Assembly (NCBI GenBank): GCA_013298185.1
Contig: JAAFJQ010000003.1
Span: 694 to 64,693 of the forward strand
Reading direction: 5' to 3'
Origin: Deinococcales bacterium
Lineage (GTDB): Bacteria; Deinococcota; Deinococci; Deinococcales; JAAFIG01
DNA length: 64,000 bases
Under the pieces are notes generated by a model. That model ran no database searches. It saw only the letters and a program-made list of their open reading frames with translations, and was not told the origin of the DNA. Shown one piece after another: positions 7,284 through 51,122 of the stretch. A program made the position numbers and the translations under genes. How positions within the stretch are numbered: the stretch's first letter is position 1; every line of letters begins with the position of its first letter.

Positions 7284-7610
7284 ATGAGCGAACTCATCTC
7301 AGAAGACACCGTTATCGGCACAGGCGCAACCGCAACCAAAGGCAACATGGTCAAAGTGCATTACACAGGCATGTTCCCCGACGGGCGGATCTTTGACTCG
7401 AGCCTGCCACGCGGCGAAGCATTTAGTTTCCCATTGGGCGCTGGGCATGTGATCAAAGGCTGGGATGAAGGTGTAGCAGGTATGAAAGTCGGCGGTAAAC
7501 GCAAACTGACCATTCCACCGCACTTGGGATACGGCGCTCGCGGCGCTGGCGGAGTGATTCCACCCAACGCCACACTGGTTTTTGAAGTTGAACTGCTCGG
7601 CGTGGAGTAG
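7284..7610 (+). CDS. FKBP-type peptidyl-prolyl cis-trans isomerase
   Basis: 108 aa. Motifs [41 protein letters not shown] and [10 protein letters not shown]. Confidence 0.92.
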
Positions 7611-7678
7611 AATGTTGGTATGACCCAACTCGAGCAAGTCTTATCCAAAAAAGCCTTTGCTGCTTTAGAACAAATTCG
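7602..7678 (+). repeat. copy 1 of a 77-nt identical direct repeat (fkbp 3' end plus antitoxin 5' end)
   Basis: GTGGAGTAGAATGTTGGTATGACCCAACTCGAGCAAG...CAAATTCG is identical to 8213-8289. Confidence 0.95.
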
Positions 7679-7895
7679 ACGATCACGCGGAATTCGTTCT
7701 CGAGCCAAAGCACTGGAAATGTTATTGCTCGAGAATATGCCTGACGAAGATGAAATCAATGGTCAGATTGTCCACAGCCCCGAAGATGCAGCTATTTTTG
7801 CAGCCCGAGTTGCCTCGGCTAAAGCGGGAAATACCATTCCAGCCGAAGAAGTTTGGCGTATGTTGGACGAAAAAATCCGAAAGTCCGAACGGTGA
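7620..7895 (+). CDS. ribbon-helix-helix-like type II antitoxin (copy A)
   Basis: 91 aa. The N-terminal 37 aa are near-identical to the ORF at 8231. Its stop overlaps the GTG of the downstream RelE/ParE-like gene (GTGA). Confidence 0.7.
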   Translation: MTQLEQVLSKKAFAALEQIRRSRGIRSRAKALEMLLLENMPDEDEINGQIVHSPEDAAIFAARVASAKAGNTIPAEEVWRMLDEKIRKSER

Positions 7896-8188
7896 GACGC
7901 TTAGCTGGTGTACCACTACAAATCAGATTTCAGTCTGATTCACCAAAAGAGTTGTTGCAACTTGCGCCACATGACGCTGTTGCCGTTCGAGAAGCGCTTG
8001 GAGAACTGGCTTTGACAGGACTCGGCGATGTCAGACCATTGGCAGGATCAAAAGAATCGTTTCGATTACGGGTGGGCAAAGTCAGGATTGAGTTTTATGT
8101 CGAGCCAGATGTTCAACTTTTGGTCGCAACCCGAATCTTTTACCGTCAGGAAGGCTATAAAACCAAGGGACGCTCGAGACGAAGATAA
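7892..8188 (+). CDS. RelE/ParE-family type II toxin
   Basis: The GTG at 7892 overlaps the antitoxin stop. The pattern FRLRVGKVRIEFYVE...VATRIFYRQEGY is typical of RelE/ParE toxins. Confidence 0.7.
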   Translation: MRRLAGVPLQIRFQSDSPKELLQLAPHDAVAVREALGELALTGLGDVRPLAGSKESFRLRVGKVRIEFYVEPDVQLLVATRIFYRQEGYKTKGRSRRR

Positions 8189-8212
8189 AAGAACATCGGG
8201 TGTATTGACCAA

Positions 8213-8289
8213 GTGGAGTAGAATGTTGGTATGACCCAACTCGAGCAAGTCTTATCCAAAAAAGCCTTTGCTGCTTTAGAACAAATTCG
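8213..8289 (+). repeat. copy 2 of the 77-nt identical direct repeat
   Basis: Identical to 7602-7678. It includes GTGGAGTAG, the last codons and stop of fkbp, so it was copied from the first junction. Confidence 0.95.
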
Positions 8290-8479
8290 TCGTGCCAGAG
8301 GTATCCGCTCGAGAACCAAAGCCCTCGAGATTGCACTGCTCGAAGTGGCTGAGGATGACGAAGTCATCAGTGATGAAGAGCTTGCATTGATTGATGAGCG
8401 TCTAGCGGAAGCAACTCGAGGTGAGGTTATTCCGGCCAGCGTTGTTTATGCAGAGTTTGATAGGTTATATCAAACGTGA
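8231..8479 (+). CDS. ribbon-helix-helix-like antitoxin paralogue (copy B)
   Basis: 82 aa. The MTQLEQVLSKKAFAALEQIRR start is shared with copy A, but the C-terminus diverges. Its stop overlaps the GTG of the next gene (GTGA). Confidence 0.65.
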   Translation: MTQLEQVLSKKAFAALEQIRRARGIRSRTKALEIALLEVAEDDEVISDEELALIDERLAEATRGEVIPASVVYAEFDRLYQT

Positions 8480-9063
8480 AAACGCAGGAAATTACACCAT
8501 TTCAAGAGCAATTACTTTCGCTCATTTCTGGTTTAGTAATTGCTAAAAGTACAGATGTCTCATTCTTGAATAATTTCCATCTCGAAGGATACCTTGATTG
8601 GGAAATCAACAAGTATGAGAAAGATTTTGACTTTACTTTTCCTCGAGTTTACCGTGAATTTCTTGGGATCATTGGTAAATTCAAGAATGAAAGTAATAAT
8701 TACCTCATTAGACATAACGAATACAGTCAAATTTTTAACGCCAATATTTCTCTCAAAGGTATGTTTGACACAAAAAAATTATTCTTTGAATCATTCCAAG
8801 ACGGTCAGAGTATCGGGGTTTCATTTCCTTCTGAGAATCAAAATTTAATGTTTTACTCAGAATGGCAGAATTCAACATGGGAATTTTTTATTGCCAACGG
8901 TGATGACCCACAAGTGTTTCATTTTAATATTTTTGAAGGCATTATTGATTTGCAATGTACTTTTTCTGAACGAATTTGTTTTCTCCTTAAACGTGAAATT
9001 CGACAGGCTTCATTGGGTAAAATTCCAATGAGCGAATCAAAATCCGAAGTGTTCTTGGTATGA
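8476..9063 (+). CDS. SUKH/SMI1-KNR4-like protein in the toxin position of the module
   Basis: 195 aa and visibly AT-rich. FPRVYREFLGIIGKF resembles the LPxxYxxFL core of SMI1/KNR4. The TGA stop overlaps the ATG of the next gene. Confidence 0.5.
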   Translation: MKTQEITPFQEQLLSLISGLVIAKSTDVSFLNNFHLEGYLDWEINKYEKDFDFTFPRVYREFLGIIGKFKNESNNYLIRHNEYSQIFNANISLKGMFDTKKLFFESFQDGQSIGVSFPSENQNLMFYSEWQNSTWEFFIANGDDPQVFHFNIFEGIIDLQCTFSERICFLLKREIRQASLGKIPMSESKSEVFLV

Positions 9064-10298
9064 ACCAGCCCAATCTCGAGCAAAACCAACTGCTGGCTCA
9101 TGCGGTGCGCTTTAGCCGTGAATTGCGCGAGGCGGGGCTTCGGGTCACACCCAATCAAACCGAGGTCTTTGCATTGGCGCTCAGTCGTATTCCGATGCTC
9201 GAGCCAAGGGCTTTTGCCGATGCGGCTCGGGCTTGCTTAGTCTCGAGACGCGAGGATTTAGCCAAGTTCGAGCAGGTTTTTAAGTCCTTCTGGCTCGAGT
9301 TGGGTTTGGGTGGCATCCCAGAAGAATTACTCAACCAAGCCAGCCTACCCAATCAGCAACAAAAACCTCGTCCCGCCGAAGTGCGCGATGGCTCGAGCCA
9401 AGGTGATAAACCGCCTTCTGAGCTTCCACCGCAACCGCTCACCGATCGAGCGCTGACGTACAGCCCAGACTCAACCCAAAAGCACAAGCGCTTTGACCAA
9501 ATGAACCCTGCTGAACTCGAAGCAGCCAAACAAGCCTTGCGGCGTTTTCAGTGGCGGGTCGGTCAGCGTCGCACAAGGCGTTTTGTGGCTGCCAGAAGCG
9601 GCGAGCGCTTGGACTACCGCCGTAGTTTCCGCACTGCCATGCGTTTTGGCGGTGAGTGGATTAAACTCGAGATGCGCCGCAAGAAAACCAAGCCTCGACC
9701 ATTGGTGGTGTTGGCGGATGTCTCGGGGAGCATGGAACGTTATGCGCGGTTGCTGCTGCATTTTATGCACGCCGTGACTCAGCGGTTAGAACGGCGCAAC
9801 ATCGAAACCTTTGCCTTTGGAACGCACCTGACCAGAATCACCAAATCCCTCGAGCGGCGCGATGTTGACGCATCCCTAACCGAAGTTGGCAAAACCGTGA
9901 ATGATTGGTCTGGTGGTACGCGCATCGGTTCGAGTTTGGAGTTGTTCAATCGGGTTCATGCCAAACGGGTGCTTGGGCGCGGCGCGGTGGTGATTCTGAT
10001 TTCGGATGGTTGGGATCAAGGGCAACCCGAAGTTTTGGGTGCAGCCGTCGAGCGCTTGCAAAAAACCTGTCATCGTTTGATTTGGCTCAACCCCCTGATT
10101 GGTACAATTGGTTTTCAACCGCAGACTCGAGGCTTGCTGGCGGCACTGCCTTTTGTGGATGATTTTTTGAGCATTCATAACTTAAATTCCCTCGAGCAAC
10201 TCGCCACGCATCTCGAGGGAATCAGCCATTTGCGCTCGGCTCGGCGCAGTGGTATTAAAGGTTGGGAAATTCAACCAACGCACCAAGCCCCAGAATAA
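9060..10298 (+). CDS. CoxE-like VWA domain protein
   Basis: 412 aa. N-terminal LLAHAVRFSRELREAGLRV, the MIDAS-like motif DVSGSM, GGTRIG and ILISDGWD. Confidence 0.8.
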   Translation: MNQPNLEQNQLLAHAVRFSRELREAGLRVTPNQTEVFALALSRIPMLEPRAFADAARACLVSRREDLAKFEQVFKSFWLELGLGGIPEELLNQASLPNQQQKPRPAEVRDGSSQGDKPPSELPPQPLTDRALTYSPDSTQKHKRFDQMNPAELEAAKQALRRFQWRVGQRRTRRFVAARSGERLDYRRSFRTAMRFGGEWIKLEMRRKKTKPRPLVVLADVSGSMERYARLLLHFMHAVTQRLERRNIETFAFGTHLTRITKSLERRDVDASLTEVGKTVNDWSGGTRIGSSLELFNRVHAKRVLGRGAVVILISDGWDQGQPEVLGAAVERLQKTCHRLIWLNPLIGTIGFQPQTRGLLAALPFVDDFLSIHNLNSLEQLATHLEGISHLRSARRSGIKGWEIQPTHQAPE

Positions 10299-10638
10299 TT
10301 TCATCGAGTGTTTCAGGTTCAAGAACACCAAGACGCTGAATAAAACGCTGTGTGCTGATGGTCATGGCTCGAGTTTGAGCTGTATCTGCTGCCGATTTTT
10401 TCTCAAGACCATTTTGCAGAGTTGGTTCAACTGGGACAATCCAAATTCGGTTTTCATAAGTTTTTGCCCAACCCGTCAAAGGAATAACCAAGCGCACAGG
10501 ATGAAGCAGGAGTGCATCAGAGCTAACAACCACTGCGGGGCGTTGTTTTTGAATTTCAGAGCCTCGAGCTGGATTGAAATTGACGCGCCAAATATCACCG
10601 CGTTTGACAATTGGCGGAATACCATACGTTTCAGTCAT
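10255..10638 (-). CDS. mazF: MazF/PemK-family type II toxin (mRNA interferase)
   Basis: 127 aa. Motifs KRGDIWRVNFNPARGSEIQKQRPAVVVS and LVIPLT. Overlaps the coxE-like 3' end by 44 nt on the opposite strand. Confidence 0.85.
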   Translation of the reverse strand: MTETYGIPPIVKRGDIWRVNFNPARGSEIQKQRPAVVVSSDALLLHPVRLVIPLTGWAKTYENRIWIVPVEPTLQNGLEKKSAADTAQTRAMTISTQRFIQRLGVLEPETLDEIILGLGALVEFPNL

Positions 10639-10828
10639 GAAGTCCTGTCATATCGTCACTTTGCTCTAACCATTCCATTGCTTCAGAATCTGGCGTGTAG
10701 ATAGGCTCACCAATAGCTTGTAGCTCGAGCAAATCACGTCTTTGTTGAATGGATAATCGCATAAAAGCCCGTCTATCCATCAGTGGTGGCTGATGGGCTG
10801 GATCAACGATGTGCTGTGATGAGTTCAT
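10631..10828 (-). CDS. cognate antitoxin of MazF (small acidic-tailed protein)
   Basis: 65 aa from the ATG at 10828. Overlaps the mazF start by 8 nt. The longer ORF reaching 11095 runs antisense into hisA and is rejected. Confidence 0.6.
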   Translation of the reverse strand: MNSSQHIVDPAHQPPLMDRRAFMRLSIQQRRDLLELQAIGEPIYTPDSEAMEWLEQSDDMTGLHD

Positions 10829-33276: not shown

Positions 33277-34752
33277 ATGCCCGAAGAAACCAAATCCGCT
33301 ACGCCACTCGAGGATAAAATCGTTACCACCCAGCATAGCCTGATGCTGCGCGGTAAAAAACTCGAATACACAGCTCGAGCTGGCACAATTGTGCTGCGTG
33401 ATGAAAAAGAAAAAGATGGTGTCTCGGAAGGAAACCAAGACCAAGCACAACTCTTCTTCGTGGCGTACACCTTAAATGGGGTTAAAGACCTCGGTAGCCG
33501 CCCAATTACCTTTTGTTTCAATGGTGGTCCTGGCAGCTCGAGTGTTTGGTTGCACATGGGCGTGTTCGGTCCGCGCAGGGTCGTCATGGGCGATGCTGGC
33601 GCACTACTACCCGCACCGTTTGGACTCGAGGATAATCCACAAACCATGCTCGAGCATTCGGATATGGTCTTCATAGACCCTGTTGGCACGGGTTTCTCGA
33701 GGGTGGCGCAGGGCGGTAAAGCCAAGGATTTTTATGGGTTTACGCGCGACATCGAATCAGTTGGGGATTTTATTCGGTTGTTTGTCAGCCGTGATGGGCG
33801 CTGGCTATCGCCGAAGTTCTTGGCTGGCGAGAGCTACGGTACAACTCGAGCCAGTGGTTTAGCGGGGTATTTGCAAGAGCGTCATGGGATGTACTTAAAC
33901 GGTATCACGCTGGTTTCGACGGTGCTGGATTTTTCAACCATTCGTTTTTCACTTGGCAATGATTTACCACACACGTTGTACTTACCAGCTTTCGCGGCGA
34001 CTGCTTATTATCATGGTGTAACCAGAGGCGCATCGTTAGAAACCCATTTGCGTCAAGCCGAGGAATTTGCCCAAGGCGCGTACATGAGCGCCTTGTTTAA
34101 GGGACATCGGCTCGAGGGTAATGACCAAACCCGAGTGGTGCGCGAAGTGGCACGTTTAACTGGAGTCTCGAGGGATTTTGTGGAGCGTTCTAACCTTCGC
34201 CTCGAGATCATGCGTTTTTGCAAAGAATTGCTGCGCCACAAGGGTCTGACCGTTGGGCGCTTAGACTCGAGATTCACCGCCACAGACCGAGATTCAGCCG
34301 GAGAGACTTTTGAATTTGACCCAAGTTACGCCGCGATTTATGGGGCATACACCGCCGCTTTTAATCAGTATGTGCGCTCTGAGTTGGGTTTTGAAACTGA
34401 TACAACTTATGAAATCCTGAACTTCAAGGTTTTCCAGCCGTGGAGTTACAAAGAATTCGAGAACCGCTACGTCAATGTCTCTGAAACCCTGCGAAAAGCC
34501 ATGACCATGAATCCAAGTCTGCGGGTACTGGTCTTAAATGGTTATTATGACCTTGCCACACCATACTGGGCTTCGGATTATGTGTTTGACCACTTGGGTA
34601 TTCCGCAGCACTTGCGCGAAAACCTAGAAACCAAGTACTACCAAGCGGGTCATATGATGTACGTGCATCAAGAAAGTTTAGAGCAGATGGCAACCGACAT
34701 CAAAGGTTTTATTGGACGCAGCGTACCAAGCAACAAGAAACGCAAAACCTAG
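33277..34752 (+). CDS. serine carboxypeptidase, peptidase family S10
   Basis: 491 aa. NGGPGSSSVWLHMGVFGP and the catalytic-Ser motif GESYG. Confidence 0.85.
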   Translation: MPEETKSATPLEDKIVTTQHSLMLRGKKLEYTARAGTIVLRDEKEKDGVSEGNQDQAQLFFVAYTLNGVKDLGSRPITFCFNGGPGSSSVWLHMGVFGPRRVVMGDAGALLPAPFGLEDNPQTMLEHSDMVFIDPVGTGFSRVAQGGKAKDFYGFTRDIESVGDFIRLFVSRDGRWLSPKFLAGESYGTTRASGLAGYLQERHGMYLNGITLVSTVLDFSTIRFSLGNDLPHTLYLPAFAATAYYHGVTRGASLETHLRQAEEFAQGAYMSALFKGHRLEGNDQTRVVREVARLTGVSRDFVERSNLRLEIMRFCKELLRHKGLTVGRLDSRFTATDRDSAGETFEFDPSYAAIYGAYTAAFNQYVRSELGFETDTTYEILNFKVFQPWSYKEFENRYVNVSETLRKAMTMNPSLRVLVLNGYYDLATPYWASDYVFDHLGIPQHLRENLETKYYQAGHMMYVHQESLEQMATDIKGFIGRSVPSNKKRKT

Positions 34753-41188: not shown

Positions 41189-42358
41189 TTAAAAACGCTT
41201 CAACCATTCTCGAGCAATAATCACTTGCTGAATTTCACTCGAGCCTTCGCCAATTCGCATCAGGCGAGCGTCACGCCAGTAGCGCTCGACAGGATATTCT
41301 TTGCTATAACCATAACCGCCATGAATCTGAATCGCATGGTCGCAGGCTGCCACAGCCACTTCGGAGGCGTAGAACTTGGCTTGGGCTGCCTCGAGGGTGT
41401 ATGGGCGGTGTGCGTCGCGCAGACTGGCGGCTTTCAGGGTCAGCAATCTGGCTGCCTCGAGTTGAGTTGCCATCTCGGCAATCTTAAAAGCAATACCTTG
41501 AAATTCAGCGATGGGTTTATCAAATTGTTTGCGCTCGAGCGCGTATCTGCTGCTGGCTTCGAGGGCAGCTCGTCCTAAACCAAGGCTGATGGCGGCAATG
41601 CCAATGCGCCCGCCATCCAAAACCCGCATCACATCCTTAAAACCTTGTCCCCTTGTGCCAAGCAAGGCGTGAGACGGCACAAACATCTCCTCAAAGATCA
41701 GCATGGCGGTGTCTGAGGAATTTAAGCCCAGTTTTTCTTCTTTGCGCCCAATCACCAAGCCCTTGGTTTCTCGAGGTAACACAAAAGCGCTTAAGCCATC
41801 GGTTTTGCTTTTATCTGGTCTTGGTGGGTCGGTGCGGGCATTGATCACATACGTACCTGCCACGCTGCCTTGGGTGATGAAAATTTTTGAGCCATTTAAT
41901 ACAAAGCCACCCTCAACTTCTTTGGCATGGGTTTGCATGGCTCCGCTGTCCGAGCCACTGCTTGGTTCGGTTAAGCCCCAAGCCCCCAAAGTCTTGGCAC
42001 TGGACAGGTCTGGTAGGTATTGGGCTTTTTGTTCGGCTGTTCCAGCCAGCAGAATATGCCCTGTGCAGAGCGAATTATGCGAGGCTACCGTCAGCGCCAA
42101 GCTACCATCTGCCGCCGCGATTTCCTCGAGCAGCAGCGCAAAAGTGGTGCTGGGTAAGTTGCTACCGCCGTACTCTTCGGGGGTTTGTGCGCCCATGATG
42201 CCAAGTTCAGCCAGTTGCTTCACCAGCTCAAAGGGAAATTCATGGGTTTTGTCTCGAGTGGCGGCGCTTGGAGCGACTTCGCGGCGCAGAAAATCACGCA
42301 GGGTTTGCAGCATGTCTTGCTGCTCTTGGCTGGGTTCAAAGAACAAAGGTTGGGTCAT
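41189..42358 (-). CDS. acyl-CoA dehydrogenase
   Basis: 389 aa. [10 protein letters not shown], the FAD-binding region and C-terminal IGEGSSEIQ. Confidence 0.92.
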
Positions 42359-46724: not shown

Positions 46725-49700
46725 TTAGAACTTGAGGGCGTAGGTGATACGGAAGCGTTGACCGAAGATTGGTTGTGCCAAGCTGAAGTCACTGAACGCA
46801 AAGATACCGTATTCAAAGTTCAAACCATAGTAGCCAAAGTTAGCGTAGATACCGCTGACGTTTGCGCCAGCAGCGGTGCTATCGCTACCCCATGAGCCAA
46901 CACCGACTGGTGCGGCGAAGCTAGGTCCAAAGCCTGAACCGTTACGGTTTGTATCGGTACGTGAAGCAAATTGGATACCAAAGGTGCTTGGAGCGCCAAA
47001 TGGTCCAACTGCCCAGTTCAAGCCAAGCAAGAACCAACCAGTGCTTGCAGTGAAGTTGGTGGCTGCGGTGTGGCTGGTGGTGTCATATGCCAAACCGAGG
47101 GTGATTGCCGAACCGAACAAGAAGTTACCGCTGGCTGTGACCGCACCACCGAAGTTGGTTGGGTCGTCAGCGCCGAATGCAGCACCGTTGCTTGGTGTGG
47201 AAATGGTGCTGAAGTAGGCTTTTGGTGCAATGTCGAAGCCAGCCAAGTTGAACTTGGTGTCAACATACGCATAGAAGCGGGTATCAGTTTCAACGCTAAA
47301 GCTGTCACGGACACGCACACCCAAGGCGATATTCACGCCACCGATAAGCGCTCCAGCTTTTGTGCCATCGTGAGCAGCGGTGAATTCGAGTGTGCCACGG
47401 CTACGGACAGCTGTTGCGCCAGCGATTTCGTTCTCAAAGTCGTACTTCAGACCAAAGTCAAAGCCGAGCAGTCTAAAGCCAGTCAATGAGAAGCCGTAGT
47501 CGGTTTCAGCAGTGGCTGAAGCAACATTGGTGTCTGATTTTGGACCGTTGCCCAAAGCAACGCCTGGGTCGAGGCGACCACGGGCATCGTAGTACAAGGC
47601 AAAGCTGAACAAGCCAAAGATGTTCTTGATACCCAAGTCAACACCAAAGCCAGTTTGGTTCTTGGCGTACTTGCCATCTGAACCAAGTCCGTTGAAGTGA
47701 CCGTCAACAAAGCGGTAGTTAATACCGACGGTGAATGGATCGAGGTTAGCACCAACTTCAACAAAGGCAGCTGCGCTGCTTGCAATGGTTGGGGTGTCGC
47801 TCTTGTTCAATTCGCCCTTGAGATCCAAGAAGCCGAACAATTTACCGCCGAAATCCAAACCGTAAATGGTTGTGGTGTTGTTTGGCGAACCGAGGACATC
47901 TTGACCTTCGTAGCCGTAGTAAACGCCGCCACGGAAGCCTGGGATCAAGCTGGCAGTACCACGCACACCGGCGAAGTAACGGAAGTCACCGTTGTTGGAA
48001 GTACCAGCACTTGCCCCATTTGCCTGTGCAGCGGCAGTGATAGCGGTAACCGTACCGACGCTGGTTGGCAAGCTCAGATTTGTGCTTGTATCTGTGCCAA
48101 AGTCAACCGTATAGTTTGTACCATTGACGTTAATACGGAAGATTGTTGCAGTCGCATTACCAGTTACAGTACGCAAGTTAGCCAAGCTCAAGCTGACACG
48201 ACTGCTACCGTCTGAGCCAGTAATCAACTGGGTAACGGCAGCACCTGGGTTGTTGCCCGGGGTGTAAATTGAAACAGCAGCTCCGAAAGTCTGACCAATT
48301 GCACCATTCCTCGAGCCGTAAACAAAGGTCAAAGCCATATCGAGTGGCAACAAGCCTGCGCCGCTGAGTTGGGCAACAAAGCCTGCACCGCGTCCGCTGG
48401 TGTTCTTGAAGCCGTAGTCGGTAAAGCTGAAACCTGGTGTGTAACCAAAGTTAATCAGCAATGGTGCGCTACCAACATTGAACAAGGTTTGGAAAGCGGA
48501 AATACGGATGACTGGGTTAAAGCCAAAGGCATTGCTTGGATCGGTGAAGTTGCGGGTGCCACCATCGGTGAACGACAACACAAGGTTGAAGTTCGGGTAG
48601 GTGTTCCAGCTGTTGCTGCTCTCGATCAAGTTGCGTGGACGGAAAGTAAACGCCAAGTTCAGACCGTAGGTAACAACGCCTTCGGTACGGACGCCTGCTG
48701 CGGTGCTTAGAGTTCCACCTGCTAATGGACGTACCAATCCGTTCGTAACAGCCAAGCTGTTTCCGAAGTCGGAAACCGCAGTACCACCTGAAGCATAGCC
48801 AACTCGAGCCAAACCAAGGCGGTCAATATCGAAGTCGTTAGCGCCAACGTTTGCGCCACCAGCGGTGGTCCAAACTCGAGCTGTGTTGTAGGTCAAGCTG
48901 ATTGTTCCACCAATGGTGAAAGCACTTGCCTCGAGGGTAGCAACGCGACCTTCGACAGCTGTAACACGTCCTGCGACTCGAGCCAAGTCTGCTTCAACAG
49001 AGCCAACGCGGTCAGCAAGGGCGGTTTGGTCGCGGCGGAGGAGCGTGGTGAATTCGCGCAAGGATTCCAAGTCGTCTTGGCTTGCAGCGCTGTCAGCCAA
49101 GTCAGCCAAACCAGCATTGGTCACGGACAAGCCGCGCTCGAGTTGGGTTGTGCGGTCTTGGAGGCTCAGCACGTCTTGGTTCAAAAGAACAACAAGGTCG
49201 TTTAGAGCAGCAATGCTGTCGGCTTGACCTTCGACGGTTGCGCCGAGTTCGCCGAGTTGGCTCTCGAGGTCGTCAATGCGACCATTGAGTTCGTCGTAAC
49301 GGTCTTGGAGTTCACGAGCTTGAGCAAGTGCGGTGTCAGCAGCGATGCTGGTTGCTTCGACTTGATCGGTCAAGTCGGCAAATGCGGCTGGGTCAACACC
49401 GGCTGGCAAGTTCTCGAGGGCAGAAGCGACTGCTTCGGCAAGGTCACGGGCTTGGTTGGCGGTTTCTGCAACAGCAGCCAAGTCGTCGTTGGTGGCGTAA
49501 TCGCCAGCTGGTTGGGCTTCTTGGGCAAGTGCCAAGGCATCATCAGCAGTTTGTTGTGCAACTTCGGCAGCAGCCAAAGCAGCAGCAGCAGCGTCGGCGG
49601 CGTCCATGGCAGCTGCCATAGCGTCGTCGGCGGTTTCCTGTGCATTTGCAGCAGCGCCTAATGCGTCATCGGCGCTTTGTTGTGCAACTTCAACACCAGC

Positions 49701-51122
49701 AGCAGCATCGTCGGCGGTTTGTTGCGCGGCGGCAGCAGCAGCCAGTGCATCGTCGGCGGTTTGTTGCGCGGTAGCAGCAGCAGCAGCGGCAGCGTCGGCA
49801 GAATCTTGAGCAGCCATTGCCATTTGTGCAGCATCAGCAGCAGCTGCCATAGCGTCATCGGCGGTTTGTTGTGCGTTTGCAGCAGCGCCTAATGCGTCGT
49901 CGGCGCTTTGTTGTGCAACTTCAACACCAGCAGCAGCGTCGTCGGCGGTTTGTTGCGCGGCGGCAGCAGCAGCCAGTGCATCGTCGGCGGTTTGTTGGGC
50001 AGCCATGGCAGCAGCCATTGCATCATCAGCGCTTTGTTGGGCGTTGGCAGCGGCGTTGATTGCATCGTCGGCGGTTTGTTGGGCAGCACTTGCACCAGCA
50101 GCAGCGTCATCGGCAGCTTGTTGGGCAGCAGCAGCAGCAGCCAAGGCGTCGTCGCCTGTTTGTTGGGCAGCAGCAGCAGCAGCAGCGGCAGCGTCGGCGC
50201 TTTCTTGAGCGGCGGCAGCGGCAGCCATGGCGTCATCGCCTGTTTGTTGGGCAGCAGCAGCAGCACCTAATGCGTCGTCGGCGGTCTGTTGAGCAGCAGC
50301 AGCGGCAGCAGCAGCGTCATCGGCTGCTTGTTGTGCAGCAGCAGCAGCAGCCAGTCCGTCGTCGCCTGTTTGTTGGGCAGCGGCGGCAGCAGCGTTGGCA
50401 GCGTCGGCAGCAGCACCAGCAGCATCAGCGGTTTGTTGAGCGCCAGCAGCGGCAGCACCGGCTGCATCAGCTGCTTGTTGTGCAGCAGCAGCGCTGTCGC
50501 TTGCAGCTTGGGCAGCGCCAGCAGCAGCTTCGGCGAGGTCGCGGGCTTGGGTGGCAATTTCTTCAACGCGAGCCAAGTCGTCGGCAGTGACTGCGTTGTC
50601 CTCGAGTTCGGCAACGCGAACACCGAGTTGGGCAAGGTCAGCAGCCAATTCTTGGATGGCGTTTTGCAAAACAACCAAGTCAGCGGCGGTCAAGAAATTC
50701 TTAAGGTCGTCTTTGGTCGCGACATTGGTTGGCAATGGAGCAGTTCCGCCAGTTTGTGCAGCTTTGATAGCAGCATCCAAGTCAGCTTTGGTAGCGTAAC
50801 GTGGAATGCCACATTCGCCGTTGCGGACAGCGTCGAGCAAACGAGCAACAATAGCGGCGGCTTGGTAACGGCTCACTGGTTCGTTACCACGGAAAGTGCC
50901 ATCTGGGAAACCACGAACGATACCGCAGTTCGCAGCGACTTGGATGGCGGCGGATGCCCAGTGACCGGCTGGAATGTCTTTCAATTCAGCTGGTTTCTGG
51001 TTTTGAGTCTGGGCGGTTGCTGGATCTACTTGCCCAGTTGGGTTGGTGCCTGTTTGCGCGAACGCGGTAGCTCCCGCACTGAGCGCAGCAGTCAACAACA
51101 TTGCAGCCGTGATTTTCTTCAT
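46725..51122 (-). CDS. slpA: giant SlpA-type envelope protein: SLH domain, Ala-rich coiled coil and C-terminal beta-barrel
   Basis: 1465 aa. Signal peptide MKKITAAMLLTAALSAGATAFAQ. SLH motif DIPAGHWASAAIQVAANCGIVRGFPDGTFRGNEPVSRYQAA. The C-terminal part is rich in alternating G/S/T/aromatic beta-strand patterns and ends YALKF. Confidence 0.85.
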   Translation of the reverse strand: MKKITAAMLLTAALSAGATAFAQTGTNPTGQVDPATAQTQNQKPAELKDIPAGHWASAAIQVAANCGIVRGFPDGTFRGNEPVSRYQAAAIVARLLDAVRNGECGIPRYATKADLDAAIKAAQTGGTAPLPTNVATKDDLKNFLTAADLVVLQNAIQELAADLAQLGVRVAELEDNAVTADDLARVEEIATQARDLAEAAAGAAQAASDSAAAAQQAADAAGAAAAGAQQTADAAGAAADAANAAAAAAQQTGDDGLAAAAAAQQAADDAAAAAAAAQQTADDALGAAAAAQQTGDDAMAAAAAAQESADAAAAAAAAAQQTGDDALAAAAAAQQAADDAAAGASAAQQTADDAINAAANAQQSADDAMAAAMAAQQTADDALAAAAAAQQTADDAAAGVEVAQQSADDALGAAANAQQTADDAMAAAADAAQMAMAAQDSADAAAAAAATAQQTADDALAAAAAAQQTADDAAAGVEVAQQSADDALGAAANAQETADDAMAAAMDAADAAAAALAAAEVAQQTADDALALAQEAQPAGDYATNDDLAAVAETANQARDLAEAVASALENLPAGVDPAAFADLTDQVEATSIAADTALAQARELQDRYDELNGRIDDLESQLGELGATVEGQADSIAALNDLVVLLNQDVLSLQDRTTQLERGLSVTNAGLADLADSAASQDDLESLREFTTLLRRDQTALADRVGSVEADLARVAGRVTAVEGRVATLEASAFTIGGTISLTYNTARVWTTAGGANVGANDFDIDRLGLARVGYASGGTAVSDFGNSLAVTNGLVRPLAGGTLSTAAGVRTEGVVTYGLNLAFTFRPRNLIESSNSWNTYPNFNLVLSFTDGGTRNFTDPSNAFGFNPVIRISAFQTLFNVGSAPLLINFGYTPGFSFTDYGFKNTSGRGAGFVAQLSGAGLLPLDMALTFVYGSRNGAIGQTFGAAVSIYTPGNNPGAAVTQLITGSDGSSRVSLSLANLRTVTGNATATIFRINVNGTNYTVDFGTDTSTNLSLPTSVGTVTAITAAAQANGASAGTSNNGDFRYFAGVRGTASLIPGFRGGVYYGYEGQDVLGSPNNTTTIYGLDFGGKLFGFLDLKGELNKSDTPTIASSAAAFVEVGANLDPFTVGINYRFVDGHFNGLGSDGKYAKNQTGFGVDLGIKNIFGLFSFALYYDARGRLDPGVALGNGPKSDTNVASATAETDYGFSLTGFRLLGFDFGLKYDFENEIAGATAVRSRGTLEFTAAHDGTKAGALIGGVNIALGVRVRDSFSVETDTRFYAYVDTKFNLAGFDIAPKAYFSTISTPSNGAAFGADDPTNFGGAVTASGNFLFGSAITLGLAYDTTSHTAATNFTASTGWFLLGLNWAVGPFGAPSTFGIQFASRTDTNRNGSGFGPSFAAPVGVGSWGSDSTAAGANVSGIYANFGYYGLNFEYGIFAFSDFSLAQPIFGQRFRITYALKF
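49490..50530 (-). repeat. tandem 42-nt (14-codon) repeats inside slpA, with a 231-bp higher-order duplication
   Basis: At least 18 units of the type QQTADDAxAAAAAA. 49646-49766 is near-identical to 49877-49997 (2 mismatches seen). Confidence 0.85.

Follow-up and report, generated by a model that had tools for sequence, protein, structure and literature searches.

In a 64,000-nt stretch of contig JAAFJQ010000003.1 from a Deinococcales bacterium (assembly GCA_013298185.1; the whole stretch is referred to as the window), the interval between the genes fkbp and VWA_CoxE was found to be a polymorphic cassette slot of a Deinococcota-like clade. Two cassettes lie head to tail in the window, namely the antitoxin AT_A with the toxin gene toxA, followed by the antitoxin AT_B with p195, a gene for a 195-aa protein of predicted SUKH (SMI1/KNR4) fold, and this second unit brought the last 9 nt of fkbp along with it. 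Every cassette begins with the same ribbon-helix-helix (RHH)-like module 9 nt past the fkbp stop, and the variable part consists of the C-terminal half of the antitoxin and the downstream gene. SUKH comes in two forms, fused to the RHH module or, as in the window, encoded by a gene of its own. Taken together with this slot history, AT_B-p195 is probably a toxin-less, RHH-autoregulated cassette of immunity type and the split equivalent of an RHH::SUKH fusion.

Alleles of the fkbp-VWA_CoxE slot

Related neighbourhoods, numbered with an L, were retrieved by exact-protein look-up in genomes and metagenomes. Their common gene order is Ser/Thr kinase, PP2C, a small open reading frame (ORF), fkbp, the slot and VWA_CoxE. 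An A-type pair of AT_A (91 aa) and toxA (97 aa) occupies the slot in L007 (GCA_031414595.1), and pairs of an 82-aa AT_B-type antitoxin and a B-type toxin (toxB) occupy it in L021 (GCA_031388325.1; toxin of 98 aa) and L022 (GCA_965184975.1; 97 aa). A single gene encoding a fused RHH::SUKH protein was observed in two loci from Joint Genome Institute (JGI) metagenomes, L010 (P0011, 294 aa) and L014 (P0013, 252 aa). L019 and L020, also from JGI metagenomes, hold AT_b, a toxin remnant, AT_a and toxA in tandem. The B-type toxin of these two loci is internally deleted such that the start codon is followed directly by the last ~15 codons (L019:1089-1168 and L020:3697-3776). With an orphan but intact AT_b preceding an A-type pair, they represent a second tandem, whose B cassette lost its toxin.

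L007 and L021 carry different cassette types, yet their VWA and FKBP proteins are 95% and 99% identical, and L010, whose VWA is 92% identical to that of both, carries the fusion. As loci this close hold unlike cassettes, the slot is multi-allelic among close relatives. The window is collinear with L007 at ~77% nucleotide identity, with positions 8182-9089 replacing 12 nt of L007 and homology resuming at 9090. Against L021, homology spans AT_B to position 8474, one codon before its stop, and resumes at 9094 inside VWA. The SUKH ORF and ~10 extra VWA codons thus fill the exact place of toxB and, since the AT_B orthologues of L021 and L022 are paired with a RelE-like toxin, SUKH took the place of a toxin. 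The original prediction from the DNA letters had offered two accounts of the second pair, a new antitoxin-partner combination and capture of the toxin slot by an immunity gene. The latter, a partner swap, is the best fit to these orthologues, whereas a new toxin-antitoxin (TA) pair is disfavoured.

The VWA genes of SUKH-bearing loci begin with an extension of ~8-10 codons (window 9060-9089, L010:8882-8915 and L014:4379-4415, with the N-termini MNQPNLEQNQ, MNHFHLEPTNH and MNNSSLESPPQY, respectively) that is absent in toxin-bearing loci. Its confinement to SUKH loci places the right recombination boundary of the SUKH allele inside VWA. Nucleotide homology between the window and L010 continues across the SUKH-VWA junction, which together with the shared extension indicates that the SUKH allele is old at the locus. 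The features of the region are collected in Table 1.

Table 1. Features of the slot region and its borders; positions are those of the window.
Feature	Positions	Strand	Evidence or remark
fkbp, 108 aa, left slot border	7284-7610	+	FKBP_C E=5.8e-38; syntenic in L007, L010, L014, L021, L022
Repeat copy 1, 77 nt	7602-7678	+	exact match to 8213-8289
TAGAAT, -10-like hexamer, candidate leaderless promoter	7608-7613	+	6 nt before AT_A ATG
AT_A, A-type RHH-like antitoxin (putative), 91 aa	7620-7895	+	91-aa orthologues precede toxA-type genes in L007, L019
toxA, RelE/ParE-superfamily toxin, 98 aa, GTG start	7892-8188	+	GTGA overlap with AT_A stop, 7892-7895
Unit 1/unit 2 junction, unique 24 nt	8189-8212	+	sequence comparison
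Repeat copy 2, 77 nt	8213-8289	+	second TAGAAT at 8219-8224
AT_B, B-type RHH-like antitoxin (putative), 82 aa	8231-8479	+	RHH_1 E=0.015, ParD E=0.039
p195, predicted divergent SUKH (SMI1/KNR4) fold protein, 195 aa, GTG start	8476-9063	+	GTGA overlap with AT_B stop, 8476-8479
VWA_CoxE gene, right slot border	9060-10298	+	VWA_CoxE E=9.9e-63
MazF/PemK toxin, outside the feature proper	10255-10638	-	PemK_toxin E=7.5e-22
MazE-like 65-aa gene beside MazF/PemK	about 10631-10828	-	

Origin and reality of the tandem

The two repeat copies are exactly identical over 77 nt and no further copy occurs in the window. Each comprises 18 nt of upstream sequence, 19 antitoxin codons and 2 nt more, in the order of the last three fkbp codons (GTG GAG TAG), the hexamer TAGAAT, a 6-nt spacer and the 19 codons. 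The first 9 nt, GTGGAGTAG, are the final codons and stop of fkbp. Beyond the repeat the in-register identity falls sharply (131 nt at 85% overall). These observations, along with the GTGA overlap in each pair, agree with the original prediction, which had described the identical stretches and their content, the copied fkbp tail and the divergence of the antitoxins downstream. A run of 77 successive matches between sequences otherwise ~60-65% identical cannot be chance. Over codons 1-40, the proportion of synonymous differences between AT_A and AT_B is 0.52, near saturation, though 19 of these codons are identical. Zero differences beside near-saturated synonymous divergence mark the tract as very recent and, judging from this comparison, it must stem from recombination or gene conversion rather than from an old duplication.

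A simple tandem duplication in situ of the fkbp tail, antitoxin and toxin, in which copy B diverged and later captured a foreign gene, would leave a repeat that includes the fkbp tail, and AT_A and AT_B are indeed homologous along their whole length (58% identity over 83 aa). AT_B is however 85% identical to the antitoxin of L021 and 81% identical to that of L022, each alone in its slot and each preceding toxB, and the antitoxin closest to AT_A is that of L007. The absence of differences within the tract would in addition call for a later conversion. Such a duplication is thus very improbable, and the tandem duplication of an antitoxin module that had been proposed as the origin did not hold up, as the A and B types are alternative slot alleles that occur alone in close relatives. 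The window is, on present comparisons, a juxtaposition of two old alternative alleles.

The antitoxins are themselves mosaic. Their C-terminal halves cluster by type and their 5' parts by genome. Both L019 antitoxins begin with MTQLERSMSKTAFAALERIRR and both window antitoxins with MTQLEQVLSKKAFAALEQIRR, and over their first 120 nt L019a and L019b share 84% identity as compared to 60-75% for same-type genes of other genomes. This split identifies the exchanged unit as the specificity half of the antitoxin plus its partner, with one crossover inside the RHH-coding part. In other words, each genome keeps its own promoter and DNA-binding module as the specificity half and partner are exchanged. 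Remnants of the fkbp tail were found upstream of both L019 antitoxins, and the internal junction of L019 consists of the toxin 3' end, a VWA start (ATGA) and an fkbp C-terminal remnant (CTT GGT GTA GAA TAA, that is LGVE*). These pieces indicate that the tandems of the clade are whole slot units, from fkbp tail to VWA start, placed serially. In the window junction, a decayed VWA start may be present as AAGAACATC (compare ATGAATCATC in L021).

In the proposed course of events, the allele of a related strain would have been added beside the resident one instead of replacing it, with homologous recombination in VWA at one end and an illegitimate join at 8212/8213 at the other. The retention of the fkbp tail would be explained by its TAG, which builds the TAGAAT that each unit would need for expression. 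As originally predicted, TAGAAT lies 6 nt before both ATGs, and the fkbp stop forms the first half of the hexamer, which would mean that a functional copy has to include the last bases of fkbp. The hexamer is kept in L007, L021, L022 and L010, and TAGAAT or TAAACT stands upstream of both L019 antitoxins without an adjacent fkbp gene. A TANNNT motif 5-7 nt before the first start codon was found at 8 of the 46 long ORFs of the window versus 2.3% of all ATG/GTG (binomial p ~9e-6). Such starts include those at 33277, 42528 and 10883 on the forward strand and at 42358, 29848, 37374 and 31566 on the reverse strand. The enrichment suggests that leaderless transcripts are widespread, as in Deinococcus deserti (PMC4007540), and TAGAAT is a candidate promoter for such transcripts. 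A simple sigma-70 scan called no promoter at either TAGAAT and found no -35 element at 16-18 nt. The missing -35 fits Deinococcus-type promoters that have a -10 element only, and does not count as evidence against a promoter. Leaderless transcription, which had been called compatible with the hexamer, agrees with its conservation in relatives and with the enriched arrangement at gene starts and remains a prediction from sequence.

The reality of the tandem was evaluated on independent assemblies. p195 is present in six Logan assemblies of the SRR99489xx series, in all of which the contig begins at 8260, at a distance of 30 nt (k-1) from the repeat end. Breaks at this distance from 8290 imply that six samples contain a sequence that matches through the repeat end and diverges at 8290, as AT_A does. 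The junction of toxA stop, 24 nt and GTGGAG (8189-8218) is unique and has no k-mer in common with the fkbp side, hence it could not be produced by mis-joining two alleles. In L004 (Logan SRR9948932), window positions 7533-7601 are followed by 8213-9164, so that fkbp is joined straight to AT_B-p195 and AT_A-toxA is skipped. This could be the parent with a single cassette, the outcome of a deletion by recombination of one repeat with the other or a tip-clipping artefact of low coverage. The exact toxA protein has been recorded from the NCBI contig only, which may reflect the short (~600-nt) contig expected between the repeats.

If two strains (fkbp-AT_A-toxA-VWA and fkbp-AT_B-p195-VWA) had been merged in a metagenome-assembled genome, or if the tandem were otherwise an assembly artefact, this would account for the join in L004, for the breaks of most other contigs within the repeat and for the single record of toxA. 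The 24 nt followed by GTGGAG belong to neither hypothetical parent, however, the six contig breaks point to an AT_A-like continuation, and L004 is equally explained by tip-clipping, a real deletion or a parent variant. Furthermore, L019 and L020, two independent assemblies, carry the same kind of tandem. An artefactual duplication, a possibility that the original prediction had allowed for, is therefore considered highly improbable, and the tandem is considered real, with a possible co-existing single-cassette variant.

Partners of the antitoxins and predicted function of AT_B-p195

In unit 1, almost all of toxA aligns with PHROG 1213 'RelE-like toxin' (E=2e-5). Among PDB entries, the best match was to Mycobacterium tuberculosis Rv2866/RelG (3g5o), with E=0.034 for toxA alone and 0.006 for a profile of five sequences. 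While toxA itself hit nothing in Pfam, ParE_toxin was matched by two of five orthologues (E up to 0.006). A single-sequence AlphaFold2 (AF2) model of toxA was poor, with a predicted local distance difference test (pLDDT) score of 53, and unfit for structure search. The B-type toxin of L021 matches a RelE-like PHROG at E=2e-8. B-type toxins are ~50% identical to toxA and have the C-terminus FYRQEGYKTKGRSRR in common, and both types are strongly basic, with an isoelectric point (pI) of 10.6 for toxA and a range of 10.6-11.2 for toxA and toxB. These matches confirm the RelE/ParE-like toxin that had been foreseen as the partner of copy A and place toxA in that superfamily. With two small, co-oriented and overlapping genes, antitoxin first, AT_A-toxA has the layout of a type II system. 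By sequence, unit 1 is a regular type II module of RelE type whose subfamily has no annotation, and would act as such.

AT_A and AT_B belong to a family of 36 clusters with the nearly invariant core R-x-x-RGIR[ST]RAKALE. No Pfam or NCBIfam model matched the family above threshold. RHH_1 reached 15.6 bits for AT_B (cutoff 20.5) and was matched, below threshold, by 8 of 30 members (best E=0.0019), Unstab_antitox was matched by 3 of 30, and AT_A showed a weak RelB-like match. The NCBIfam scan returned noise-level matches only. A PADLOC match of AT_B to AbiEi (E=0.0017) was judged to be noise, and PADLOC otherwise returned nothing meaningful. RHH-like antitoxins, as originally predicted, are consequently plausible but not proven, with RHH_1, ParD and the core pattern in their favour and all matches sub-threshold. 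One antitoxin homologue is labelled Deinococcota. The ratio of non-synonymous to synonymous substitution rates is 0.06 for AT_A versus the L007 antitoxin and 0.07 for AT_B versus that of L021 (~0.03 in the C-terminal half), and AT_B is intact, under purifying selection and not decaying.

p195 matched three SUKH Pfam families at E=0.0015-0.006, below threshold (19.6 bits vs 25.4). An exhaustive HMMER search of 1.84 billion representatives resulted in ten relatives. Of these, P0011, which matches p195 at E=2e-35, and P0015 exceed the Pfam gathering cutoffs, and with scores of 58-103 bits P0017, P0019 and P0020 clearly belong to SUKH. An AF2 model built on seven sequences had a pLDDT of 80.2 and a predicted template modelling (TM) score of 0.80. 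Its top 18 Foldseek matches in the PDB were all Knr4 (yeast), YobK (Bacillus subtilis) or BF1740 (Bacteroides), at probabilities of 0.93-1.0 and query-normalised TM scores of 0.39-0.61 (Knr4 entries 0.55-0.61). Relatives and modelled fold together identify p195 as a divergent SUKH-fold protein, which bears out the SUKH-like protein of the original prediction by the structure-prediction check that it had suggested.

The AT-richness noticed earlier was likewise confirmed: p195 has a GC content of 0.333, and 0.30 at third codon positions (GC3), versus 0.55-0.56 and 0.57-0.59 for fkbp and VWA and 50% for the window. The same holds for the SUKH segments of the window, L010, L011, L014 and L015, at 33-39% GC versus 51-58% in the flanks. 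A very recent foreign insertion as sole explanation of the low GC was rejected, since SUKH is equally AT-rich in L010, L011, L014 and L015 and since loci are homologous across the SUKH-VWA junction. Identity among the four SUKH parts is 41-52%, compared to 78-88% between the flanks of the window and those of L010 and L014.

A survey of the neighbourhoods of p195 homologues, also suggested at the outset, revealed RHH::SUKH fusions and standalone copies. P0011 is made up of an entire AT_B-like antitoxin and a SUKH domain with 45% identity to p195, joined by a linker, and P0013 consists of RHH module, linker and SUKH only. A third fusion, P0012, lies in an unrelated context (GCA_965189485.1). The three fusions are 42-46% identical to p195 and their N-termini 46-57% identical to AT_B. 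P0012 and P0013 are devoid of the C-terminal, neutralising tail of the antitoxin. The natural fusions are in frame with a conserved PWDxxxPTG linker, which the window does not have. A programmed -1 frameshift fusing AT_B to p195, which lies in the -1 frame, was rejected as no slippery heptamer is present at 8465-8480. P0014-16 are standalone SUKH homologues with no adjacent antitoxin of the AT_A/AT_B family, and P0012 and P0014 have no VWA neighbour. The neighbours of p195 family members are fkbp, an RHH antitoxin, VWA_CoxE, a helicase or HEPN/MNT genes. A word-seeded search returned only p195 itself, and four proteins when started from the family alignment, missing the query members P0011-14, for which reason absence from it is uninformative. 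A scan of genome contigs gave a 25-residue Streptococcus fragment only; metagenome contigs, searched with the SUKH and the antitoxin alignments, and viral contigs gave no matches, and neither did tblastn of p195 against a plasmid collection.

Unit 2 departs from the type II scheme, in which the downstream partner is a toxin, and p195 from the usual context of immunity genes, as it lies neither 3' of a secreted multidomain toxin nor in a polyimmunity array. That p195 is itself a toxin is unlikely given a SUKH fold without catalytic signature, its acidic pI (4.9; 4.3-5.0 for p195 and its relatives), the tail-less fusions P0012 and P0013 and the standalone P0014-16. The SUKH proteins of bacteria serve as immunity proteins, and the toxins that they counter are highly diverse (PMC3113570, PMC3482391). 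A conflict-type role is further indicated by SUKH diverging faster than its flanks, as proteins of conflict systems do, by its location in a TA slot, with relatives beside HEPN/MNT genes, and by P0011, which unites a RelB-like tail and SUKH in the manner of 'polyimmunity proteins' (PMC3482391). In the cassette proposed here, AT_B would autoregulate the shared promoter and would still be able to bind a B-type toxin, and p195 would be a protein-binding module of immunity type. Together they would counteract a basic toxin whose gene lies elsewhere or is acquired by gene transfer, and AT_B-p195 would constitute an antitoxin-only or 'anti-addiction' allele of a TA locus. The RelE-like toxins of competing alleles are candidate targets.

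Several observations weigh against this interpretation. No multidomain secreted toxin (LXG, Rhs or CdiA) lies beside p195-family genes in the five contexts inspected, and the large window ORFs that were tested are SlpA, glycosidases and similar, not polymorphic toxins. No additional toxB, antitoxin or SUKH copy is present in the window, and no cognate toxin for p195 was found at the loci examined. The in-locus history leaves the persistent AT-richness of SUKH unaccounted for, and the sampling is thin, with four SUKH-bearing loci of the p195 family recovered. The assignment of the antitoxins to RHH is sub-threshold in Pfam, the family has no sequence match in the PDB, and the strong purifying selection on AT_B could merely reflect a recent swap. 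The C-terminal tail of AT_B (net charge -10) and p195 (net -8) are moreover both acidic. Direct TA-like binding between them is thus doubtful, which leaves operon structure and fusions as the sole ground for their cooperation.

The main rival is that RHH::SUKH and split AT_B-p195 are a transcription regulator unrelated to toxins, in which the DNA-binding domain of a former antitoxin would be domesticated and SUKH would act as a sensor or adaptor tuning VWA_CoxE expression. In its favour, the cassette overlaps the VWA_CoxE start by 1-4 nt in the window, L007, L010, L014 and L021 (L022 leaves 1 nt between the two, and the VWA gene as called in L019 shares 89 nt with the toxin gene). The VWA extension specific to SUKH alleles, the missing toxin partner at every locus examined and the general protein-binding role of SUKH domains such as Knr4 and FBXO3 (PMC3113570) are in line with it as well. 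The slot is nevertheless otherwise occupied by bona fide RelE-type TA pairs, hence VWA needs no SUKH. In addition, an identity of 44-47% for SUKH versus 78-85% for VWA would be odd for a housekeeping regulator, and P0012 and P0014 occur without a VWA neighbour. A regulatory role is thus unlikely, albeit the alternative to be taken most seriously.

Far less likely is the possibility that p195 acts as a novel toxin with AT_B as its antitoxin, which would make unit 2 a genuine new type II pair. Its operon layout with the GTGA overlap matches that of AT_A-toxA, AT_B is intact and under purifying selection, and fused toxin-antitoxin proteins do exist elsewhere, CapRel being an example. Yet p195 is acidic, unlike the basic toxins it replaced, P0012 and P0013 have no neutralising tail and P0014-16 no adjacent antitoxin of this family. 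The SUKH fold, moreover, comes without a catalytic motif, and its described roles are binding and immunity (PMC3113570, PMC3482391). The immunity-type cassette was therefore retained. A more speculative extension of it, which we consider doubtful, is that SUKH was recruited to neutralise intracellular RelE-type toxins, that toxin-free alleles, RHH::SUKH genes as well as split AT_B-p195, vie with the RelE-type TA alleles for a single slot and may displace them by disarming the resident toxin and that the window tandem is an intermediate of such a displacement.

Neighbouring features and known systems

The MazF/PemK and MazE-like pair converges on VWA_CoxE and marks a second TA slot, which is variable too. 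It contains MazEF in L007, HigB and a helix-turn-helix (HTH) gene in L014, a Uma2-family gene in L019 and only a MazE-like gene in L010, and is empty in L021. A 1465-aa S-layer protein with SLH and SlpA beta-barrel domains is encoded on the reverse strand at 46725-51122. Along with the antitoxin homologue labelled Deinococcota, this protein assigns the window to Deinococcota. The palindrome CTCGAG (XhoI site) occurs 404 times in the 64 kb versus ~16 expected by base composition. It is the commonest hexamer, threefold ahead of the next, with a median spacing of 112 nt, and falls in every codon phase, most often as CTC-GAG (211/78/75). It is likewise abundant in L007, L010, L011, L014, L019, L021 and L022 and almost absent from SUKH segments (1 observed vs 13.5 expected, or ~5 after base-composition correction, which is marginal). 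It resembles the cyanobacterial highly iterated palindrome HIP1 but differs in sequence, and no description of its hyper-abundance was found in the literature searched. The VWA start region at 9070-9083 (CCAATCTCGAGCAA) resembles the antitoxin starts at 7624-7637 and 8235-8248 (CCCAACTCGAGCAA), probably as a by-product of CTCGAG abundance, albeit at the right border of the inserted unit.

The evolutionary picture of the slot is solid. If the SUKH part neutralises a toxin, the locus would be a natural case of a TA locus taken over by an immunity-only allele, and the three allele classes at one slot would form a compact system for studying how TA genes are exchanged, added and disarmed by recombination. 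AT_A-toxA and the AT_B-toxB pairs of relatives resemble type II RelBE/ParDE systems with RHH antitoxins in that the antitoxin comes first, the toxin is basic and of ~98 aa, the overlap is 4 nt, the promoter lies directly upstream and the loci vary between strains. They differ in that the antitoxin family is above no Pfam or NCBIfam threshold and, in unit 2, in that an acidic 195-aa protein of predicted SUKH fold holds the toxin position.

Orphan antitoxins, or anti-addiction modules, were reportedly described by Saavedra De Bast et al. in 2008, and a toxin-less antitoxin gene at a chromosomal TA locus is found here as well, as in AT_b of L019 and L020 and the MazE-like gene of L010 without MazF. 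Unlike these, unit 2 has its lost toxin replaced by an extra binding domain and not merely deleted, and its protection against incoming toxins is a prediction. Modular shuffling of the DNA-binding and toxin-binding parts of antitoxins is said to have been reported by Leplae et al. in 2011, and Panacea-domain antitoxins are an example. A conserved N-terminal DNA-binding module with varied C-terminal parts and partners, and a breakpoint within the antitoxin gene, conform to that pattern, whereas here the variants are alleles of one chromosomal slot in close relatives and one of the exchanged partners is a non-toxin.

p195 is similar to SUKH immunity proteins such as YobK (PDB 2prv) in predicted fold, in acidity, in its rapid divergence relative to its neighbours and in the occurrence of orphan copies and of fusions to other neutralising modules (Zhang, Iyer & Aravind 2011/2012; PMC3113570, PMC3482391). 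It differs in having no LXG, Rhs or CdiA toxin adjacent in the five contexts and in being driven by, or fused to, an RHH antitoxin module. The parts consulted of these two papers do not mention RHH or ribbon-helix-helix, and those of the 2011 paper (PMC3113570) do not mention HTH or DNA-binding either. No description of an RHH-SUKH operon or fusion was found in the literature searched. The nearest juxtaposition is that of the Acinetobacter plasmid pAC1530, in which a relBE pdif module is directly followed by an SMI1/KNR4 pdif module and both vary between sister plasmids (PMC7885321). In contrast to the window, the plasmid has two distinct modules mobilised by Xer, and neither a dedicated RHH gene nor a fusion (PMC7885321). 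The locus described here ties SUKH to RHH antitoxins by the toxin's exact place, by the same antitoxin promoter module and, in relatives, by fusion.

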